Sequence record: PZ871100.1
Source of the DNA: a phage
Direction: 5' to 3' (one strand)
Length of the DNA stretch: 50,975 nucleotides
This document shows positions 523-49,909 of this stretch, one piece after another. Both the position numbers and the translations under genes were made by a program. Numbering within the stretch: position 1 is the first letter of the stretch; every line of letters starts with the position of its first letter. The notes under the pieces were generated by a model. It had not been told where the DNA came from. It did no database searches and worked only from the letters and a program-made list of their open reading frames with translations.

Positions 523-2090
523 TGCTGATTTGGGAAGACTTAACAGCGGCGCAAAAACGCGCCGTTAAGGAAATGAGCGAATATTCATTCGAAAAGATGA
601 TCCGCATTTGGTTTCAGTTATTGCAAGGTCAGAAATTCTTAGGAAACTGGCATTTCAGTTACCTATGTAGCGAAGTTGAAAAAATCATCAAAGGCGAGTC
701 ACAGAATGTAATTTTCAACATAACGCCAGGTAGTGGTAAAACAGAGATATTCTCGATCCATATGTCACCTTATGCGTCATTGAAAAGTAAGAAGGTGCGA
801 AATCTTAATCTTTCGTTTAGTGATGGCCTTGTCCAGCAGAATAGCAACCGCATTAAGGAGATTATTGGTTCTCCAGAATGGCAGGAGCTATGGCCTGGAA
901 AGCTGGCAAAGGCGAGCGCAAAGGATTTGATTGTAACCGATGGCGGCAAGGTTAAATTACAAGTTAACTCGCGTTCTATCGGTGGTCAGGTTACTGGTCT
1001 GCGTGGCGGATACATGGACGATGGATTTACTGGTATGCTGGTTCTTGATGATCCAGACAAACCGGATGACATGCTTTCTAAGGTGAAGCGCGAAGCCGGA
1101 CACATGCGCCTAAAGAACACTGTTCGATCGCGTCGAATGAAGGACACCACGCCAATTGTGATGGTTCAGCAACGCCTACACGTCAATGATTCAACATGGT
1201 TCATGACAAACGGCGGCATGGGCGGCATCAAGTTTAAGGTGGTTAGTATTCCGGCGCTCGTTACTAAGGAATATCGCGAAACGCTTCCTGATTGGTTAAA
1301 GCCTGAGTTTGATCGCGATGTTTTGTCCAGTAAGCCAGTGATGATTGATGGAGTTGCTCATTATTCATTCTGGCCTGCTAAGGAAAGCGCTGAGGAATTG
1401 CTTGCGCTTCGCAATGCTGATCCGTACACGTTCGCTAGTCAGTATCAGCAACAGCCTGTTGCGCTTGGCGGTAACGTGTTTAAAACAGAGTGGTTTCAGT
1501 ATTACGGCAGCAGCGAGAAATGCACGTTACCCAAACCGGATCGCTTTGAATATACATTTATCACGGTTGATACCGCGCAGAAAACAGGGGAGCTTAACGA
1601 CTATTCCGTGATCTGTTATTGGGGGATGTATAAAGATCGTGTTTACTTCATTGATGGCGTGCGCGGAAAATGGGAAGCACCGGACCTTGAGACGAATTTT
1701 GTTGCATTCGTGAATCAGTGCTGGAAGCGCAATAAAGAATGCGGAACGTTGCGAAGGATTCATGTTGAAGATAAATCGTCTGGCACTGGATTGATTCAGA
1801 GTGCGGCGAAAAAAATCATGATCAAGATCAATCCCGTTCAGCGCGATAAAGACAAGGTTACTCGTGCAATGGACGCAGCACCAGTAATGCGCGCCGGACG
1901 CGTGGCACTTCCAGAATCGCATCCTATGATGGCTGAGATACTAGCTGAAGTTGCGGCGTTCACATTCGATGATTCGCATCCTCATGATGATATTGTTGAT
2001 AACATCATTGATGCGGTTAACATTGAAATGAACATGGCAGACGATCCGGTAGGAAGAATGAAAAAACTGGCAGGTTTGCGGAACAAATAG
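522..2090 (+). CDS. terminase large subunit
   Basis: 522 aa; N-terminal ATPase region (ITPGSGKTE) and C-terminal nuclease-like region; precedes portal. Confidence 0.85.
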   Translation: MLIWEDLTAAQKRAVKEMSEYSFEKMIRIWFQLLQGQKFLGNWHFSYLCSEVEKIIKGESQNVIFNITPGSGKTEIFSIHMSPYASLKSKKVRNLNLSFSDGLVQQNSNRIKEIIGSPEWQELWPGKLAKASAKDLIVTDGGKVKLQVNSRSIGGQVTGLRGGYMDDGFTGMLVLDDPDKPDDMLSKVKREAGHMRLKNTVRSRRMKDTTPIVMVQQRLHVNDSTWFMTNGGMGGIKFKVVSIPALVTKEYRETLPDWLKPEFDRDVLSSKPVMIDGVAHYSFWPAKESAEELLALRNADPYTFASQYQQQPVALGGNVFKTEWFQYYGSSEKCTLPKPDRFEYTFITVDTAQKTGELNDYSVICYWGMYKDRVYFIDGVRGKWEAPDLETNFVAFVNQCWKRNKECGTLRRIHVEDKSSGTGLIQSAAKKIMIKINPVQRDKDKVTRAMDAAPVMRAGRVALPESHPMMAEILAEVAAFTFDDSHPHDDIVDNIIDAVNIEMNMADDPVGRMKKLAGLRNK

Positions 2091-2120
2091 CACGAATCGA
2101 CAAACCAATATATAATCAAA

Positions 2121-2143
2121 GGCTGGTGAATCCAGCCTTTTTT
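2121..2143 (+). terminator. hairpin + T-run between terminase and portal
   Basis: GGCTGG tgaa TCCAGCC then TTTTTT, immediately followed by ATTGGAGG RBS. Confidence 0.5.
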
Positions 2144-2158
2144 ATTGGAGGAAAGATA

Positions 2159-3439
2159 ATGAGTAAATCACGAATCGTTAAGGCTGACGGCTATAACGAG
2201 ATCTTTAAAGGAGAGAATTGCAAATCGCGAGTAGAGCAACCATTCTACATGCAATCAATGCCATACAAGACACTTGCTGACTTTTACGAAAAAGACGGCC
2301 TGGCAAAAAGGGTTATTGACGTAGTACCAGAGGAAATGGTTTCCCCTGGCTTCACGGTTGACGGCGTGGCAGACGAGGCAGCATTCCGTTCTTTGTGGGA
2401 TGAGAAGCGATTGAATGCAAAAATTATTGATGCGCTTTGCTGGTCGCGTTTGTTTGGTGGATCTGCAATCATTGCTCTTGTTCAGGATGGGCGAGCGCTC
2501 AAATCACCTGTAAAGCCTGGTGCCATGTTGGAGGATGTGCGAGTTTACGATCGCTATCAGATTCGCGTTGAAGCGCGCGAAACTAATCCCCGCAAGGTTC
2601 GCTATGGTGAGCCAGTGCTTTACACTGTAACGCCAGGCGGAGACTTGCCGGAATACCAGGTACACTACACGCGCGTTTGCATTATCGACGGTGAGCGGAT
2701 ACCTAACGCAAAGCGACGCAGCAATGATGGCTGGGGTGAGTCAGTTCTTAACAAGCGACTTGTTGAGGCTATTGTTGATTATAACTATTGTGAAACATTG
2801 GCAACGCAATTATTGCGGCGTAAGCAACAGGCGGTATGGAAGGCTAAAGGACTCGCTGACTTGTGCGATGATGAGGAAGGTGTTAGCGCGGCACGCCTGA
2901 GACTTGCGCAGGTTGACGATGAGGGCGGCGTAGGCAAGGCCATTGGTATTGATGCTGAAGATGAGGAATATGATGTTCTTAACTCTGACATTAGCGGAGT
3001 TGATTCTTTTCTGGAAAAGAAAATGGATCGCATAGTTTCCCTTTCAGGTATTCATGAAATCATCCTGAAAAATAAAAACGTTGGCGGCGTTAGCGCAAGC
3101 CAAAACACGGCGCTTGAAACATTCTATAAGCTGATTGAACGAAAACGCGTTGAGGATTACAAGCCTATCCTTGAATTTCTATTGCCGTTCATCATTAGTG
3201 AGCAGGAGTGGAGCATTGAGTTTTCACCTTTGAGCGTGCCTAGCGATAAAGATCAGGCTGAAATTCTGAATAAGAATATCGACTCAATCAGCAAGGCTAT
3301 TGATGGTCAGTTCCTTGATGTTGAAGAAGCGCGAGACACGTTGCGAGCAATCGCCCCAAGCGTTAAACTAAAGGACACTAATAAAATCAAGCTGCCGGAG
3401 CCAGCGGAGCCGGAGCCAGGCACACAGGGGAATGAGTAA
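2159..3439 (+). CDS. portal protein
   Basis: ORF trimmed to ATG 2159 with GGAGG 9 nt upstream; ~426 aa, immediately downstream of TerL; acidic C-terminus. Confidence 0.75.
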   Translation: MSKSRIVKADGYNEIFKGENCKSRVEQPFYMQSMPYKTLADFYEKDGLAKRVIDVVPEEMVSPGFTVDGVADEAAFRSLWDEKRLNAKIIDALCWSRLFGGSAIIALVQDGRALKSPVKPGAMLEDVRVYDRYQIRVEARETNPRKVRYGEPVLYTVTPGGDLPEYQVHYTRVCIIDGERIPNAKRRSNDGWGESVLNKRLVEAIVDYNYCETLATQLLRRKQQAVWKAKGLADLCDDEEGVSAARLRLAQVDDEGGVGKAIGIDAEDEEYDVLNSDISGVDSFLEKKMDRIVSLSGIHEIILKNKNVGGVSASQNTALETFYKLIERKRVEDYKPILEFLLPFIISEQEWSIEFSPLSVPSDKDQAEILNKNIDSISKAIDGQFLDVEEARDTLRAIAPSVKLKDTNKIKLPEPAEPEPGTQGNE

Positions 3440-4203
3440 TGAAAGTGAAGGGCGTCGTTAAACAATGGCGCTTTCCTGAAGCAAGCGAGCGGCAATTTAG
3501 CCGCTCAATTCAGGAGGCAATTAGAGATCTTGTGGTTCTCATGCGCAAGCGAACAAAAGCGATGAAGTTTGACGCAACAGATAATGAGATCAACAGCGCA
3601 GAAGATGAAATTAACAGCCTGGCAACTGACCTTATAGCTGGCATTGTTTCAACTCTTCCTACAATCGCGTTGACCATTTATAAATTCAATGCGAAGCAGT
3701 TTATCAATGTTGCCAAGTCAACTGGCGGAAAGGATAATACGGCGGTAATTGTTTTGATCGCGGTTGGCGCTAACGCTAACGAGGATTGGTATCAGACGCT
3801 CTACGGTCAATGGCACGGGCTTACAGAATCATCGCTAAGGAAGTTGTTCACAAATATTGTGTCTGACTGGTCAACAAACATTCGCAATGCAAACTTTCGC
3901 GGAAGCGATGATAAACAGGTTAATGATCTTGCAGAAAAGAGATTTGCTGTTTATAGCTCTTGGGGCAAGACGAGATCAGAAAACATTATCGGAGCGTGGA
4001 ATAGTCGCCTGATGCGCCAGCGTCTTTATGATGCTAAGGTAACTCATTATTTCTGGCATGGAATGTTAGATGACAGAGAGCGTTTGCAACATGTATTATG
4101 GGAAGGAAAAAGAATAGCGCTTGATGCAATTCATGATTTCCCTGGTGAGCCGTGGGGTTGCCGTTGCTGGGCAATTCCAGATTGGAATAATAAAGGAGAG
4201 TGA
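3439..4203 (+). CDS. head morphogenesis protein (Mu F / SPP1 gp7-like, putative)
   Basis: 254 aa, follows portal in canonical order; ATG overlaps portal stop. Confidence 0.5.
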   Translation: MKVKGVVKQWRFPEASERQFSRSIQEAIRDLVVLMRKRTKAMKFDATDNEINSAEDEINSLATDLIAGIVSTLPTIALTIYKFNAKQFINVAKSTGGKDNTAVIVLIAVGANANEDWYQTLYGQWHGLTESSLRKLFTNIVSDWSTNIRNANFRGSDDKQVNDLAEKRFAVYSSWGKTRSENIIGAWNSRLMRQRLYDAKVTHYFWHGMLDDRERLQHVLWEGKRIALDAIHDFPGEPWGCRCWAIPDWNNKGE

Positions 4204-4206
4204 TTA

Positions 4207-5319
4207 ATGAAGGCAAAACAAAGATTTGATAGCGTCCAGGTTAAGGCGCATTTTGATGATAATGGCTTTTTAGTTGATCGCCCAATTGTGGCGAGAATTG
4301 GCTTGCAGGAGTACCGCACACCGTATGGAATCAGACGAGAGTTCCGTCCAGCGTCCGAGGTGTTCAAGGCTGATTCCCTTGCTACTTTCGCAGGTAAGCC
4401 GATCACTATCGGTCACGTCACAGTGACGCCAGATAATGCGGATCAGGTTGTTGTTGGTTCATGCGCTGGCGCTGGTGTTCCAAATGGGATTGGCGTTGAA
4501 GTTCCGTTAAGCATTTACTCAAAGCGAGCAATTGAGAGCGCAAAAAAGAAAGATACGGCTGAAATTTCAGTTGGTTACACATCAATTGATATTGATAAAC
4601 CAGGATGGGGCAACAATAAAACTGGTGATTACTTGTTTGAAGAAGACCTTAATGAAGACTGGAAGCCTGATTCTCCTGATTGGGTTAAATTTGACGCCAT
4701 TCAGACGAATATTCGTGTCAACCACATTGCGCTTGTCTTTCGTGGTCGTGCTGGCATTGCCAAATTAAATCTTGATAGTGAACAAGATTTTCCGTATAGT
4801 GACGAGGTTCTAAATGACAAAGGAGATGAGGAAATGACAGTAAAAATTAAACTTGATGGCGCGGTAGAATTTGATGTTCCAAAGGCCGTTGCTGATCATA
4901 TTGAGGCGTTAAAGGCAGATGCAAAAGCTGCAACCGAAAAAGCTGATGGCCTTGAGGCCGAGCGCGACGCCCTGAAAACTAAAGTCGATGGCATTCCGGC
5001 GCAGATTGCAGAAGCTGTTAAGAAGGCAAAGACTGACGCAGAAGAACATGCCAAGCTGGTTGCAGATGCAACTGAAATTGGCATCAAGTGTGACGGCTTG
5101 GACGCTAAAGCGATCAAGGTTGCTTACGTCAAAGAAGTCACTGGCGCTGATATTTCAGAAAAAGCCGATGCATATATTGAAACAGCTTTTGACCTTGCGA
5201 AGCAGTCTGATAAAATGGCGGCGCAGCGTAAATCTGTTAAGGGCGATTCTTTCGAATCTGGCAAGAGTGAAAAAACCGACTCCCTTGATCCTACTGCGCG
5301 TTTGAAAAAACTTAAATAA
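4207..5319 (+). CDS. capsid scaffolding protein (possible N-terminal protease-like domain, C-terminal Ala/Lys/Glu coiled coil)
   Basis: 370 aa; C-terminal half is low-complexity helical AKxAxEKA repeats typical of scaffolds; located before capsid genes. Confidence 0.5.
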   Translation: MKAKQRFDSVQVKAHFDDNGFLVDRPIVARIGLQEYRTPYGIRREFRPASEVFKADSLATFAGKPITIGHVTVTPDNADQVVVGSCAGAGVPNGIGVEVPLSIYSKRAIESAKKKDTAEISVGYTSIDIDKPGWGNNKTGDYLFEEDLNEDWKPDSPDWVKFDAIQTNIRVNHIALVFRGRAGIAKLNLDSEQDFPYSDEVLNDKGDEEMTVKIKLDGAVEFDVPKAVADHIEALKADAKAATEKADGLEAERDALKTKVDGIPAQIAEAVKKAKTDAEEHAKLVADATEIGIKCDGLDAKAIKVAYVKEVTGADISEKADAYIETAFDLAKQSDKMAAQRKSVKGDSFESGKSEKTDSLDPTARLKKLK

Positions 5320-5331
5320 GGAGAAATAAAC

Positions 5332-5844
5332 ATGGCTACAATTGGAGCAAGCTACTTTGCTGTAATGTCTCGTGCGTTACCTGGTCAGGTTTCTGACACT
5401 TCAGCTTATAATATTGATGGCGCTTGTGTTCTTGAGAATGCGGCAGGCAATCAGAATCAGTCTGTTTTTGTTGGTGTGGCGGTCCAGCATGGCGGCGTTG
5501 ACGCTATGGGCAATAAGCTAATTAAGCCGATGGCGGCAAGCGGCAAGGCTTACGGCGTTGCAATTCGATCTCACTTTCAGACAACTTCGTCTGACGGTCG
5601 AATGATTTATGAATCTGGCAGCGGAATCAACGTAATGACTGAGGGGCGTGTTTGGATGTTGACTAAAGACGCTTCCGCGCCAGCTTTCGGCACTGCAATC
5701 AAACTGTCTGATGATGGTCAGGTTGATACCACGTCTGGCACTATCGAAACAAACTGGATCGCGACTGGTGATTTCACCAAGTTTCAAGACTTGAAGCTGG
5801 TAGAGGTTCAGGTGCAAAAAGTTCCAGCAGTTTCAGCAGGTTAA
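5332..5844 (+). CDS. capsid-associated protein, paralog A (decoration/structural, putative)
   Basis: 170 aa; clear paralogy with next gene (ESGSGINVMTEGRVWMLTKDASAPAFG vs EEGDPVNVVSRGNVWCLTSESEAPEYG); RBS AAGGAG. Confidence 0.4.
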   Translation: MATIGASYFAVMSRALPGQVSDTSAYNIDGACVLENAAGNQNQSVFVGVAVQHGGVDAMGNKLIKPMAASGKAYGVAIRSHFQTTSSDGRMIYESGSGINVMTEGRVWMLTKDASAPAFGTAIKLSDDGQVDTTSGTIETNWIATGDFTKFQDLKLVEVQVQKVPAVSAG

Positions 5845-10064: not shown

Positions 10065-10134
10065 TTACTGTACAATCATGCTACACGATTCATAATCAAT
10101 TCTTTTAACAAAAAGTGCTATCAAGGAGAAAGAA

Positions 10135-28512: not shown

Positions 28513-28986
28513 TTAGCAATTAGTGCTTTCAGGTTTATACAGGAATCCGCCAGGTTCATAATCTGACATTCTTACCACTCGCAACATTTCACGCTTATCA
28601 CATCTCTTTGTGAGCGGTTTTCCATTGGAATCAAATCGCAGATCTGGACGGCAGAATGAAGCGCGATAACCTTGACAGCCATACTTTTTATAATCATTGT
28701 GCACCTTTTGAGCGCCAGCGGCTGAAATCATACCGCGAACTCGCCACTGATTTACAGTTTGCTGGCTAACGTTAAGACGTTTTGCCATTGCTGACACACT
28801 TCCGTAATACTCAATAAGGATGTCAAGGCGTGCTTTTAGTCCGGCTCGCACTTCATCTTTTAAAACATAGTATCCTGTAGGGCGCTTGCGCTTCTTCTTG
28901 TCCTTGCCTCGTCTTGTTCCGTTATTGCCATTAATTGTGCGCTTGTCAATCTTTCCTGTTGATACTGCGATTCGTTGTTCTTTCAT
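28513..28986 (-). CDS. helix-turn-helix DNA-binding protein (putative regulator)
   Basis: 157 aa; basic N-terminus KDKKKRKRP; HTH-like SVSAMAKRLNVSQQTVNQW; heads the minus replication block. Confidence 0.5.
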   Translation of the reverse strand: MKEQRIAVSTGKIDKRTINGNNGTRRGKDKKKRKRPTGYYVLKDEVRAGLKARLDILIEYYGSVSAMAKRLNVSQQTVNQWRVRGMISAAGAQKVHNDYKKYGCQGYRASFCRPDLRFDSNGKPLTKRCDKREMLRVVRMSDYEPGGFLYKPESTNC

Positions 28987-32565: not shown

Positions 32566-32608
32566 TAGCACTTTTTGTTAAAACGCCCGACCTTGTGTCG
32601 GGCATAAT
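32565..32608 (+). promoter_or_regulatory. conserved-box promoter-like unit
   Basis: Box 32565-32584, spacer inverted repeat GCCCGAC...GTCGGGC, CATAAT 32603-32608, leader CATCAAAACGA. Confidence 0.6.
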
Positions 32609-32640: not shown

Positions 32641-32820
32641 ATGGTTGTTTACGATCCACGCGCTTTTAAAATTGCTCAAGAAGTTTCACGCGAATCTGTT
32701 GCTGGCGGTTCGGTTAACGGCTATCAGTTTGATTGGTCGGCAGCAATGACCCTGCTTAAGGTTGCATATGGTCACGCGCCAATTGAAACAGCGGAGGAAT
32801 ATTATAAGCATGAAGGTTGA
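32641..32820 (+). CDS. hypothetical small protein (59 aa)
   Basis: Below ORF-track cutoff; ATG 32641 with AGAGGA RBS downstream of promoter unit. Confidence 0.4.
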   Translation: MVVYDPRAFKIAQEVSRESVAGGSVNGYQFDWSAAMTLLKVAYGHAPIETAEEYYKHEG

Positions 32821-35786: not shown

Positions 35787-35830
35787 AATATACCCGATAC
35801 GAGATCGGGAGTTTTAACAAAAAGTGCTAT
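35787..35830 (-). promoter_or_regulatory. conserved-box promoter-like unit
   Basis: Minus-strand box (plus 35811-35830), spacer inverted repeat CCCGAT...ATCGGG, TATATT (plus 35787-35792), leader CATCGAAACGA. Confidence 0.6.
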
Positions 35831-38629: not shown

Positions 38630-38673
38630 ATTATGCCAGGCTTTTACACCTGGCTTTTAACAAAAAGTGCTAT
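38630..38673 (-). promoter_or_regulatory. conserved-box promoter-like unit
   Basis: Minus-strand box (plus 38654-38673), spacer inverted repeat GCCAGG...CCTGGC, CATAAT (plus 38630-38635), leader CACCGAAACGA; methyltransferase-like stop TAG in box. Confidence 0.6.
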
Positions 38674-39771: not shown

Positions 39772-39999
39772 TCATACAGCCTTCCAGCTTTCAATAAACA
39801 TGCTGTTTTCTTCCAGAAGTTTAATCAATTCTTCGCGCGTATATTTGCGGATTTTACTACCTGGATGTGAGCCAACAACAAACACACCTTTACCACTCGT
39901 GATGGTTAACTGGTTGATTCCGCAAGATTTATCCATTTTCACGGCGACGCGGTGATGTGCATCAACAGTGTGCATGATGTTAGTGACTTTAGCTTTCAT
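39772..39999 (-). CDS. hypothetical protein
   Basis: ATG 39999 with GAGGA RBS and promoter unit upstream; 75 aa. Confidence 0.45.
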   Translation of the reverse strand: MKAKVTNIMHTVDAHHRVAVKMDKSCGINQLTITSGKGVFVVGSHPGSKIRKYTREELIKLLEENSMFIESWKAV

Positions 40000-40455: not shown

Positions 40456-40649
40456 TACACAACCTCCATAATAGTATTGAATCCACGCAGTTTGAAAGCA
40501 TTTCCATGTTTAACAACGTTCCATGTCAGGCCGGAGTGATACGCAACCATATCCTCAAGATCAATGGTGATGATAGCGCCTTTTTTAAAGATTCCTTTCT
40601 CGTGAGTGGTGTCACGCTGTACAACTTTAACATCAACTTGATTTTCCAT
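40455..40649 (-). CDS. hypothetical protein
   Basis: 64 aa; promoter unit and conserved leader (CATCGACAACGA...GAGGA) upstream. Confidence 0.45.
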   Translation of the reverse strand: MENQVDVKVVQRDTTHEKGIFKKGAIITIDLEDMVAYHSGLTWNVVKHGNAFKLRGFNTIMEVV

Positions 40650-41510: not shown

Positions 41511-41756
41511 TCATTGTTGATCGTGTTTAACGGCAATCAGAACATCACAGGACTCGTTAATGAATTTAGCCATGCGCTTATCATCACCAACAGGTATTAG
41601 CGCATTAAACTCGCGTTTGCTACTGAATACCGTCACTTTATGAAATGATGCGAACGGCATCGACGGGAACTCTACTGTTTGCGTCAGTATACGCAATCCC
41701 ATCTTTTTGGCCCTTACTTGGGCCTCAGCGAGTTCAAAATCCACTTCATTAATCAT
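41511..41756 (-). CDS. hypothetical protein
   Basis: 81 aa; ATGA overlap with upstream gene. Confidence 0.4.
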   Translation of the reverse strand: MINEVDFELAEAQVRAKKMGLRILTQTVEFPSMPFASFHKVTVFSSKREFNALIPVGDDKRMAKFINESCDVLIAVKHDQQ

Positions 41757-42025
41757 TTCTTGATCTCCTCAGCAATAAACTTCAGGACTTTGCGCAAAAA
41801 CACTTCATTATTGATGGTCGCTGGCAATTCTTCTTTTACTTCTTGCGGCAGGTAAACGTTGCCATGCCAGGTTAAGCAATCGTAGTTGATACGATAAGAG
41901 CAAAGCCACTCGCAATCGTTATCCGCTTCCCAAATGCAGAGTTGCAGAACATCGCCGAAATTCTCAACAGTCAGGTCCAGACCATGACGCTTGGCGAAAT
42001 TGAAAGTGGTTTTGCTGATGTTCAT
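41753..42025 (-). CDS. hypothetical protein
   Basis: 90 aa; AGGAG RBS; promoter unit and conserved leader upstream. Confidence 0.45.
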   Translation of the reverse strand: MNISKTTFNFAKRHGLDLTVENFGDVLQLCIWEADNDCEWLCSYRINYDCLTWHGNVYLPQEVKEELPATINNEVFLRKVLKFIAEEIKK

Positions 42026-42064
42026 TTGCTTTCTCCTGATTGGTATCTCGTTTCGATGTATGCA

Positions 42065-42107
42065 TTATGACAAATACAGTCAGGCACGTTTTAACAAAAA
42101 GTGCTAT
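42065..42107 (-). promoter_or_regulatory. conserved-box promoter-like unit (first of the minus small-gene block)
   Basis: Minus-strand box (plus 42088-42107), 17 nt, CATAAT (plus 42065-42070), leader CATCGAAACGA. Confidence 0.6.
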
Positions 42108-42402
42108 TTGCTGACTGGTCATTATTCCATATATTCCATTAATCAGGAATAACAGGAATAACTCATTCGCGATCACCTGGATTGGGAGACTTTGAGTTTG
42201 GTCAATTTTAATCAAGTGATTAACTTTTTGTGTGGAGGGGATAGAGAAACGCGATCCTCTCGCACCCTTTCCGGCAATCCTGGCGCGCAACATGTTCATT
42301 ATGTTTCCAGCCGTTCACGCAAATAAGCCTCCGCAGTTCTTCCACGTTTCATGCTGTCATGCACACAAAAGAAACAATGTAAAATCTATATAAATACACA
42401 TT

Positions 42403-42600
42403 AAATCAATAAGTTAGTTATATATGTATTTATATTTGTTTCTTATTGTTCTTGTTGTGTGATGGTTATTGGTATATGTTGCGATTTTTGTGTTGGTGGA
42501 TATTGATTGTTTATTGTTCGATTTGGTTGATGATTATGGTTGCTCATGGTTGCGTATGATTCTTGATGTATTTATGTATATATCCGCGAAAATTCGCGAA
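42403..42600. repeat. GT-rich noncoding element B (homolog of 20900-21050)
   Basis: 16-mer AAATCAATAAGTTAGT at 42403-42418, GT-rich tract, inverted repeat CGCGAA aa TTCGCG near 3-prime end. Confidence 0.6.
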
Positions 42601-42707
42601 CAGCCACACAGCCAAAAAACATGATGAGGATTCTTTTGAAATCATGCACTTAACTGCGAATTTTGTTTCCGCGCAATCTCCACACGTATAGCGAACAATT
42701 AGAACGC

Positions 42708-42737
42708 TTGACATAGGCGCGGCGTGGTGGCAACATT
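42708..42737 (+). promoter_or_regulatory. possible sigma70-like promoter (perfect TTGACA, weak -10) with adjacent inverted repeat
   Basis: TTGACA 42708-42713; weak -10 CAACAT/AACATT about 17-18 nt downstream; GGTGG...CCACC inverted repeat overlaps. Confidence 0.3.
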
Positions 42738-42774
42738 GCAACCACCAAAAACAGAGCAAATAGGAGTTACACCC

Positions 42775-43236
42775 ATGACCATGACAAGCAAGGAATTTTG
42801 CGATATGTTGCGAGTTAATGCAGCCTCACTAGCTAACGGGGATGTTAGCGAACTGCAAATCAAGGAGCTTGACTTGCAATGTAATATTGCGCCGGAAGAC
42901 TTGAGGAAAATTAACGCCTCATACATCCGAACGATTATGAATCGAACGCCGGAGGTGAAAGCCGTTGGCGTGGTGAAGGTTGAACGCGTTCGAGGCGATG
43001 CTGACATTCCTGATTGTTATCGCGTAACAATTAACCAGAATCCAAAGCGCCGCTTGCTGACAGATGAAGAACTGCCAAAACTTGAAAGTAAGTGGCGAGC
43101 AAAGTTTATTGCTCAACTGCTTAAAACACAGCCGCGAATCAGCGATCTGGAAGGTGAGCGCCTGGAAGGTGCGGCAATCGCACTTGAGCGAATGAATGAA
43201 ATGCTTAACGATATGGTAAAGATGGAGGATGAATAA
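42775..43236 (+). CDS. hypothetical protein (first gene after noncoding region B)
   Basis: ATG 42775 with AGGAG RBS; 153 aa. Confidence 0.45.
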   Translation: MTMTSKEFCDMLRVNAASLANGDVSELQIKELDLQCNIAPEDLRKINASYIRTIMNRTPEVKAVGVVKVERVRGDADIPDCYRVTINQNPKRRLLTDEELPKLESKWRAKFIAQLLKTQPRISDLEGERLEGAAIALERMNEMLNDMVKMEDE

Positions 43237-43496: not shown

Positions 43497-43536
43497 CACT
43501 TTTTGTTAAAACGCCAGGTGCGAATCCTGGCATAAT
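43493..43536 (+). promoter_or_regulatory. conserved-box promoter-like unit
   Basis: Box 43493-43512, spacer inverted repeat GCCAGG...CCTGGC, CATAAT 43531-43536, leader CATCGAAACGA. Confidence 0.6.
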
Positions 43537-48521: not shown

Positions 48522-48809
48522 ATGGCTAAAAGCAATCGTAAAATGTTGATTAACGCATTCGAAAAGGCGGCGCTTGAGCGTGGTTGGAATGACTCATTTC
48601 ACACAGCAAACTGTATCCGCCATTACGGATTCAAGAATTGCCGATCCTGGGCGCGTGAAATGGCTTCATGGTATGATCTTGATGCGCATTACCTTGATAT
48701 GGATTGCGCCCTTGTTGAAATGATTGAGCAGGCCGCACTAGAGGATCGACCATTAACGCAATCTGATTTTGACGATTTTGTGCGCGATGAAATTTATTAT
48801 ATGAGCTAA
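48522..48809 (+). CDS. hypothetical protein
   Basis: ATG 48522 with AAGGAGG RBS; 95 aa; stop adjacent to promoter box. Confidence 0.4.
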   Translation: MAKSNRKMLINAFEKAALERGWNDSFHTANCIRHYGFKNCRSWAREMASWYDLDAHYLDMDCALVEMIEQAALEDRPLTQSDFDDFVRDEIYYMS

Positions 48810-49780: not shown

Positions 49781-49909
49781 ATGGATAACTACATAAAACC
49801 GTCGCAGTGGTGCTCACAGAAGCAAGAGGAAGCATTAGAACGCGGCGACACTGAAACGGCAATGCACTATTTCGAAATGTACAACTTGTGGAAGGGTAGA
49901 GGTCTGTAA
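49781..49909 (+). CDS. hypothetical small protein (42 aa)
   Basis: Not in ORF track; AAGGTGA RBS; TAATG overlap with next gene. Confidence 0.3.
   Translation: MDNYIKPSQWCSQKQEEALERGDTETAMHYFEMYNLWKGRGL

Follow-up and report, generated by a model that had tools for sequence, protein, structure and literature searches.

A conserved array of four heptamer sites beside the first predicted leftward promoter of a T1-like phage, a candidate operator or enhancer

The window analyzed in this study is the whole of sequence record PZ871100.1, a stretch of 50,975 nucleotides of phage DNA. Upstream of a series of leftward small genes it carries an array of four short sites, two of them reading TTATTCC or nearly so and two reading GGAATAA in the inverted orientation. 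The array is non-random, its sites are constrained, and its geometry and promoter-proximal position are kept across phage families. With a probability that we put at roughly 55% on the sequence comparisons below, the array is an operator or enhancer for a putative protein, possibly of the host, that gates the first leftward promoter. Protein binding itself, the oligomeric state of the protein, the sign of its regulation and its host origin are points that we infer. By sequence identity the window is assigned to a T1-like phage of Hanrivervirus. Positions 41700-43000 are 93% identical to Escherichia phage aaroes (Drexlerviridae, Tempevirinae, Hanrivervirus) and match 133 phage records.

Read directly from the window, the sequence from 42120 is cattattccatatattccattaatcaggaataacaggaataac. 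Its layout is TTATTCC-2-aTATTCC-8-GGAATAA-2-GGAATAA with the center of symmetry at 42141.5 (Table 1), and read toward the promoter it is TTATTCC-2-TTATTCC-8-GGAATAt-2-GGAATAA. The hexamer cores are TATTCC at 42123-42128 and 42132-42137 on the plus strand, and GGAATA at 42146-42151 and 42155-42160. The initial annotation had pointed out ATTCCAT copies facing AGGAATA copies; on reading, all are present (42124-30 and 42133-39; 42145-51 and 42154-60). A repeat search of the window returns 9-bp direct pairs and 16-nt inverted arms at the array, and the sequence TATTCCNNNTATTCC has two perfect matches in the 51 kb, on opposite strands and both inside the array. The comparison with chance looked for any hexamer w arranged as w-N3-w-N4..12-rc(w)-N3-rc(w), where rc is the reverse complement, and used 300 dinucleotide-preserving shuffles as the control. 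One array was found in the window and none in the 300 shuffles; the repeats of the initial annotation are real and non-random. Nowhere else in the window do three or more exact copies of the hexamer fall within 60 bp, and in phage T1, too, the array is the sole such cluster. Genome-wide there is an excess of exact hexamer pairs spaced 9 bp apart, with 40 observed and 14.8 +/- 5.1 in shuffles; this excess is probably codon periodicity.

Table 1. Positions of the array sites, the adjacent promoter unit and the surrounding features in the window.
Feature	Position	Strand	Remarks
Site 1, TTATTCC	42122-42128	+	Minus-strand reading is the promoter-proximal GGAATAA; invariant in eight relatives
Site 2, aTATTCC	42131-42137	+	9 bp from site 1 (7-2-7); first base alone varies (A/C)
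Site 3, GGAATAA	42146-42152	+	Inverted; 8 bp past site 2
Site 4, GGAATAA	42155-42161	+	9 bp from site 3 (7-2-7)
21-mer promoter unit, AATAGCACTTTTTGTTAAAAC	42088-42108	-	Separated from the array by 13 nt; first and most upstream unit of the leftward small genes
Extended -10, TGtCATAAT	42064-42072	-	18 nt downstream of the 21-mer; -10 hexamer 42069-42064
5'-leader motif, CATCGAAACGA	42048-42058	-	Conserved, common to promoter units
Near-invariant module, 200 bp	42088-42288		Both flanks diverge among relatives
Palindrome, TTAATCA-ag-TGATTAA	42208-42223	+	0 of 14 arm columns variable; both center columns vary
First gene of the leftward array	41753-42025	-	90 aa, phrog_6147; served by the predicted promoter next to the array
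Divergent non-coding control region	42026-42774		From the leftward gene start (42025) to the ATG (42775) of DUF7174, which heads the rightward gene array

Comparison with related phages had been proposed as a check on the repeats, and columns were counted in an alignment of eight relatives. The repeat structure is kept. A single column of the 28 in the four heptamers varies, compared with 3 of 12 in the spacers of the array and 6 of 13 in the linker between the array and the 21-mer of the neighboring promoter unit. The core promoter and leader vary at 25 of 59 columns, and positions 42289-42360 at 44 of 57. Near-invariant heptamers set among freely varying spacers are what protein-binding sites show, and in this alignment the heptamers are under site-specific constraint and behave like such sites. 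They belong to a near-invariant module of 200 bp that holds the 21-mer, the array, a GATC at 42171-74, a palindrome and a GGAGGGG run at 42234-40. In one relative, L005, an inserted gene with its own promoter unit splits the module from the 90-aa gene, and despite this gene the module still heads the leftward array of genes.

The array recurs in other phages. The pattern TATTCC-N3-TATTCC-N8/9-GGAATA, with its spacers free to vary, is kept in 21 distinct T1-like sequences, which have two layouts. In the type I layout, that of the window, all four sites are followed by 13 nt and the 21-mer. In the type II layout, that of T1, the fourth site lies 13 nt further on and is fused to the 21-mer as GGAATAGCA; in T1, whose array is at 48749-48798 (L054, NC_005833), the full GGAATA occurs in the first unit only. 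TTATTCC/GGAATAA arrays with other copy numbers and spacers occupy the equivalent place in BEBK14 (Warwickvirus), Enterobacter phage BHUENT9 and Yersinia phage YP10S2. Pattern scans of IMG/VR gave 69 loci, some of which look like chance matches in coding sequence. The loci that are not T1-like fall in Kagunavirus/Jerseyvirus (Guernseyvirinae), in Cornellvirus-like, phiEap-2-like and Seuratvirus-like contigs, and in a group of about 41 kb represented by L055, for which the phage collection offers no more than a partial match, Enterobacter phage Mulvp2. Common to all lineages is the core geometry TTATTCC-N8/9-GGAATAA-N2-GGAATAA, with the second forward site present or not. The array-bearing lineages that could be placed all match phages of Enterobacteria.

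The position of the array relative to promoters also recurs. For instance, in Kagunavirus K-01 a stretch of 12 nt separates the array from a downstream TTGCAC-17-TACTAT, and the small gene behind it diverges from the spanin genes. K-01 has another cluster, GGAATA-4-GGAATA-15-GGAATAAtTTATTC (L118 3724-3760; about 39793-39829 of the record), which partly overlaps the end of a spanin open reading frame (ORF) and abuts TTGACA upstream of the scaffold gene. This second cluster is kept in seven Kagunavirus loci, K-01's own included. Similarly, L055 has a 2+2 array with the spacing seen in the window, and it ends 13 nt upstream of TTGACG. In T1-like phages, Kagunavirus and L055 the array lies 12-13 nt upstream of the 21-mer or of the predicted -35. 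Judged from these loci, the recurring theme is an intergenic array immediately upstream of a predicted promoter element. The distance of 12-13 nt and the two Kagunavirus clusters point to a promoter-linked operator or enhancer.

The promoter element next to the array in the window is of a kind found throughout the genome. The 21-mer AATAGCACTTTTTGTTAAAAC occurs in 16 copies at no more than 3 mismatches, each facing its gene, and the units have the same order: the 21-mer, about 18 nt (often a GC hairpin), the -10 hexamer, the leader CATCGAAACGA, a ribosome-binding site and ATG. The spacing from the 21-mer to the extended -10 of the first leftward unit holds in the other units. Transcription of the first unit would start near 42057, which would place the array at about -66 to -103. 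A marbox is defined as GCAnnWWnTGnnAAA, and a forward marbox that overlaps the -35 is the class II arrangement (PMC12052159). The 21-mer fits this definition at every specified base and has the class II placement. The window has 21 perfect matches to the marbox pattern, with 1.7 expected, and 20 of the 21 are in promoter units, forward, facing genes and overlapping the -35 position. In class II promoters the published spacing from marbox to -10 is 18-19 nt. The perfect marbox fits and the class II placement suggest that the 21-mer promoters may use Rob, MarA or SoxS of the host. No MarA homologue was found in the phage with a MarA query sequence. The 21-mer is the 21-nt repeat known from phage TLS, where its function is listed as an open question (PMC11447400), and the literature searched gave neither the 21-mer sequence nor a link of Drexlerviridae to marboxes.

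Other 21-mer copies in the window include those at 10102, 20767, 28999, 31523, 32564, 35811, 38654, 40705, 41211, 43492, 43956 and 48808. The gap between 21-mer and -10 holds a GC-rich hairpin in many units, for example at 32585-32605, 35790-35810, 38633-38653 and 43513-43530. The stems differ yet stay complementary (GCCCGAC/GTCGGGC, CCCGAT/ATCGGG, CCAGG/CCTGG, GGCGC/GCGCC).

In the mechanism that we propose, the array would be a non-coding cis element with four candidate heptamer binding sites. One sequence-specific protein would bind the four sites, probably as a dimer of dimers or a tetramer. The bound protein would then gate RNA polymerase, or an activator that uses the 21-mer, at the first leftward promoter alone, where the marbox-like 21-mer would overlap the -35 position and be followed by 18 nt and the extended -10. 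As to the sign of the regulation, we lean to negative control, because the fourth site of the T1-type layout overlaps the 5' end of the 21-mer (GGAATAGCA) and because Tlsvirus has look-alikes of the nemR palindrome at the equivalent position.

T1-like phages that lack the array carry other short repeats at this position. GATTAC repeats with a period of 10-11 bp are found in L010, L013 and L014, TGCAAC palindromes in W011D, L020 and L048-50, and AATCAA repeats in L019. In T1, the side of position 1 away from the array has GTTGCA/TGCAAC palindromes, a G6 run, a leftward 21-mer unit and GATTAC repeats. In TLS (L244 790-830; NC_009540 about 49790-49830), TAGACCGATTGGTCTAGACCGATTGGTCTA lies 6 nt upstream of the first leftward unit. 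Tlsvirus has two overlapping TAGACCnnnnGGTCTA palindromes, and their arms are identical to those of a palindrome in the nemR promoter of E. coli K-12, which contains TAGACCGACTGGTCTA (L245 1994-2009). The nemR-promoter palindrome is presumably the NemR box, bound by NemR. The doubled palindrome is present in seven Tlsvirus-like contigs (L249-L255) with invariant arms and a variable center, and one Tlsvirus-like contig has a symmetric double change to TATACC...GGTATA.

Because different operator-like repeats fill the equivalent position, the array position behaves as a slot for interchangeable operator-like elements. By its sequence, at least one slot element copies an operator-like palindrome of a host promoter. 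A further step, which we take to be improbable though worth stating, is that the array is one of several swappable operators of host transcription factors placed before a marbox-type (Rob/MarA/SoxS-like) early promoter. If this were true, early transcription of the phage would be wired to the stress or metabolic state of the host. Alternatively, the many copies of the array made by replication could titrate a host regulator off its own regulon.

Phage and host proteins were searched for one that might bind the array. Three ORFs of the window are common to T1 and absent from W011D, encoding 59, 101 and 296 aa. The two longer proteins were set aside as binders since they are present in array-less relatives. 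The 59-aa protein (32641-32820), found in the window, T1 and Kagunavirus and not in W011D, is acidic and not DNA-binding-like, and besides it no small protein shared by Kagunavirus and the window phage was detectable. A Cro/YdaS-like regulator of 157 aa beside the primase (28516-28986) is a core gene product, and its recognition helix shows no sorting by array presence. In phage VSiA the protein annotated as a "transcriptional regulator" beside the array is a misannotated SbcD-like metallophosphatase. Turning to the host, the half-sites of NagC/Mlc are TTATTT/TTAATTT in a 23-bp palindrome, and the nagE-nagB boxes are of the TTAATTT/TTATTTT type with no TTCC. The NanR operator requires GGTATA (PMC8012715), and the hexamer is GGAATA in all copies of the array. 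The array motif differs from the DnaA box TTATCCACA at positions 7-9, and the window shows neither enrichment nor a cluster of DnaA boxes. A scan of bacterial genomes for the array listed matches that are chance ones in AT-rich genomes, and the literature searched named no binder for TTATTCC/GGAATAA. Since no phage protein tracks the array, a host factor is a plausible binder. Binding assays with DnaA and IHF had been proposed in the initial annotation. DnaA is unlikely as the binder, and the IHF assay is reasonable because the IHF core consensus WATCAANNNNTTR fits the palindrome of Table 1, at 42210-42222 and 50 bp from the array. A second IHF consensus is at 42404-42416.

Several points weigh against the array being a promoter-linked operator or enhancer. 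None of the neighboring phage proteins (296 aa, 101 aa, 81 aa and DUF7174) co-varies with the array, and the motif matched no known host regulator among those tested (NagC/Mlc, NanR and DnaA). The promoter positions are predictions read from sequence. T1-like genomes have a single array each, which would be expected of a pac site or an origin. The T1 record starts with a 2800-bp repeat_region at a distance of 37 bp from the array of T1, and the SU57 paper puts the T1-like packaging start in this same untranslated region. An AT-rich tract lies 200 bp from the array in the window, and the array of L055 is abutted by DnaA boxes and an AT-rich tract and is followed by the terminase genes.

A pac site is the first alternative to be weighed. 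In that case the small terminase or an accessory factor would assemble next to the first headful cut, on the four sites together with the IHF-like and GATC sites close to them. The single copy per T1-like genome, the start of the T1 record and the location given by the SU57 authors all speak for a pac site, as does the IHF consensus near the array. In L055, moreover, the array is about 240 bp upstream of terS-terL, and a 64-aa ORF, a Terminase_2 small terminase and a large terminase with a LAGLIDADG intein-like domain follow it (1375-5493); the predicted promoter next to the array would drive both terminase genes. Nevertheless, the presence of the array follows neither the similarity nor the family of TerS. 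The TerS of W011D is 74% identical to that of the window phage and W011D has no array, whereas T1, with a TerS of 54% identity, has one; among array-bearing phages the family is GP3_package in the window and Terminase_2 in L055. In the window phage the array is about 8.9 kb upstream of terS, and Kagunavirus has its two promoter-proximal clusters in the head/lysis region, kilobases from the terminase genes. The basis of position 1 of T1 is unconfirmed, and that of TLS was assigned by resemblance to the pac of P22. On balance a pac site is a minority possibility. The ends of the haarsle and G29-2 records, near 42234-42242, were considered as physical ends and discarded, as many authors orient their genomes on T1.

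The initial annotation called the arrangement iteron-like. This holds as far as direct and inverted repeats with the conservation of protein sites are concerned; it is not supported in the sense of origin iterons. As an origin, the repeats would bind an initiator or origin-organizing protein, which would unwind the AT-rich tract at a distance of 200 bp. Where T1-like phages start replication is not known (PMC11447400, PMC7718038). The genome has this one array, and the AT-rich tract at 42360-42440 (81 bp, 18.5% GC) is followed by a T/G-rich tract at 42441-42585 that is strongly strand-asymmetric (75 T, 37 G, 23 A, 10 C) and has internal direct repeats. The two tracts lie 200-450 bp from the array, and 42360-42585 is a candidate unwinding region. 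The same succession of AT-rich and T/G-rich DNA is found in BEBK14, BHUENT9, YP10S2, T1 and TLS. In L055, three DnaA boxes (two perfect TTATCCACA and ATCCACA) and an AT-rich tract directly precede the array (1100-1345), and in the Seuratvirus-like L062 the array is about 1.4 kb upstream of a primase/helicase gene. However, 7-bp sites with a 9-bp period in both orientations are unlike phased iterons of 17-22 bp, and neither an initiator gene nor a cluster of DnaA boxes was found in the window. W011D, a close relative with the same replication genes, is without the array, and Kagunavirus has its arrays in the late region, a long way from its replication genes. We therefore consider a role as origin iterons unlikely. 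A long imperfect inverted repeat occurs in the AT-rich tract, with arms at 42362-42401 and 42422-42461, and the second IHF consensus is within the same tract.

A DNA or RNA hairpin, formed as a cruciform or a structured leader instead of protein sites, is very improbable. The 2+2 inverted layout does fold, at -7.4 kcal/mol as DNA (z = -3.6), but the fold is weak, the asymmetric layouts of T1 and Kagunavirus are no better than shuffles (z = -1.6 and -1.2), and it is the heptamer sequence itself, not co-varying stems, that is kept across families. An Rfam scan gave a chance CrcZ match only, and no intrinsic terminator was found.

That the array is part of a small gene, either the 111-aa ORF at 41964-42299 (minus) or the 62-aa coding sequence aaroes_22 annotated in the GenBank record of aaroes over the equivalent of 42112-42300, is scarcely credible: the ATG exists only in the window and aaroes and is missing in L002, L003 and L007, the relative L004 has two separate 1-nt deletions, no Pfam or PHROG family matches, the ORF crosses the promoter unit and the start of the next gene, and the variation over it is site-like rather than codon-like. 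The initial annotation was right to suspect that this ORF is spurious. It was too modest in leaving about 190 bp noncoding, as the control region measures about 750 bp (42026-42774).

Further features of the genome and control region were recorded. The window begins with the ATG of TerS, the gene of the small terminase. One gene of the leftward array, at 40458-40649 (minus), encodes 64 aa and matches Pfam PF25180, "Phage antiviral trigger protein Gp54" (E = 3e-37). (T/A)GAACA repeats with a period of about 9-10 bp lie at 42296-42330 and 42585-42705; the equivalents in L004 and L005 are GATAACAG, TLS has GTGAACA three times, and T1 has CGATTAACA three times by its rightward promoter. A putative rightward promoter of the window has TTGACA at 42708. 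The near-Chi sequence GCGTGGTGG is in the control region at 42716-42735, and CCTGGTGG occurs twice in BEBK14 (L051 1745-1760 and 1995-2010); these 7/8 matches, which may be due to chance, adjoin the presumed packaging start.

Our study suggests that the array is a previously undescribed conserved cis element of a familiar kind. The 2024 reannotation of TLS found no iteron-like repeats and left the role of the 21-base repeat open (PMC11447400). Laboratories and industry often meet T1-like phages as contaminants, yet their transcription control, origin and form of pac are all unknown. The array offers a defined element of 40 bp that is directly testable, with a geometry kept in Drexlerviridae, Guernseyvirinae and Seuratvirus-like phages. 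It heads the leftward early genes in the region where the packaging start of T1 was placed, and naming its binder would tell an early-transcription switch from a pac mark or an origin organizer. With the 21-mers that fit the marbox and the nemR palindromes of Tlsvirus, the control region may also serve as an entry to the use of host regulators by phages.

Among known systems, the NanR operator of E. coli, (GGTATA)3, is the first to compare. Its binding needs at least two repeats at fixed spacing, and the dimers cooperate (Horne et al. 2021, PMC8012715). The array is like it in having short hexamer repeats a few bases apart, and GGAATAacaGGAATA of the window resembles the NanR repeat unit. The third base differs, however, GGAATA in place of GGTATA, and the array has two inverted pairs where NanR has three direct copies. 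The nemR-type palindrome of Tlsvirus is like the array in its location directly upstream of the first leftward 21-mer and in its invariant arms with a variable center; it differs in being a 16-bp palindrome repeated twice, with another sequence and symmetry. Two further systems are leads only. NarL binds 7-2-7 sites of inverted heptamers with the consensus TACYYMT; the 7-2-7 heptamer spacing is that of the array, whereas the NarL 7-2-7 sites are inverted. HipB operators are TATCC-N8-GGATA, and the inner pair TATTCC-N8-GGAATA of the array has the same TCC-N8-GGA core, with the HipB half-sites one base shorter.

Origin iterons, as in plasmids and lambda, are usually 17-22 bp long, direct and helically phased, with an initiator gene nearby. 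The array shares with them clustered repeats in non-coding DNA, a nearby AT-rich tract and one cluster per genome; it differs in repeat length, in direct orientation and in phasing, and a nearby initiator gene was not found for it. Terminase recognition arrays are represented by cosB of lambda, with its R sites and the IHF site I1, and by the pac of P1, with its hexamer arrays. The array resembles these systems in its short repeats of both orientations and in the neighboring IHF-type and GATC sites, and the annotated start of the T1 genome, 37 bp from the array of T1, is a further likeness. In contrast to them, the array does not follow TerS or its family, and in Kagunavirus it is present as two copies, each of them proximal to a promoter.

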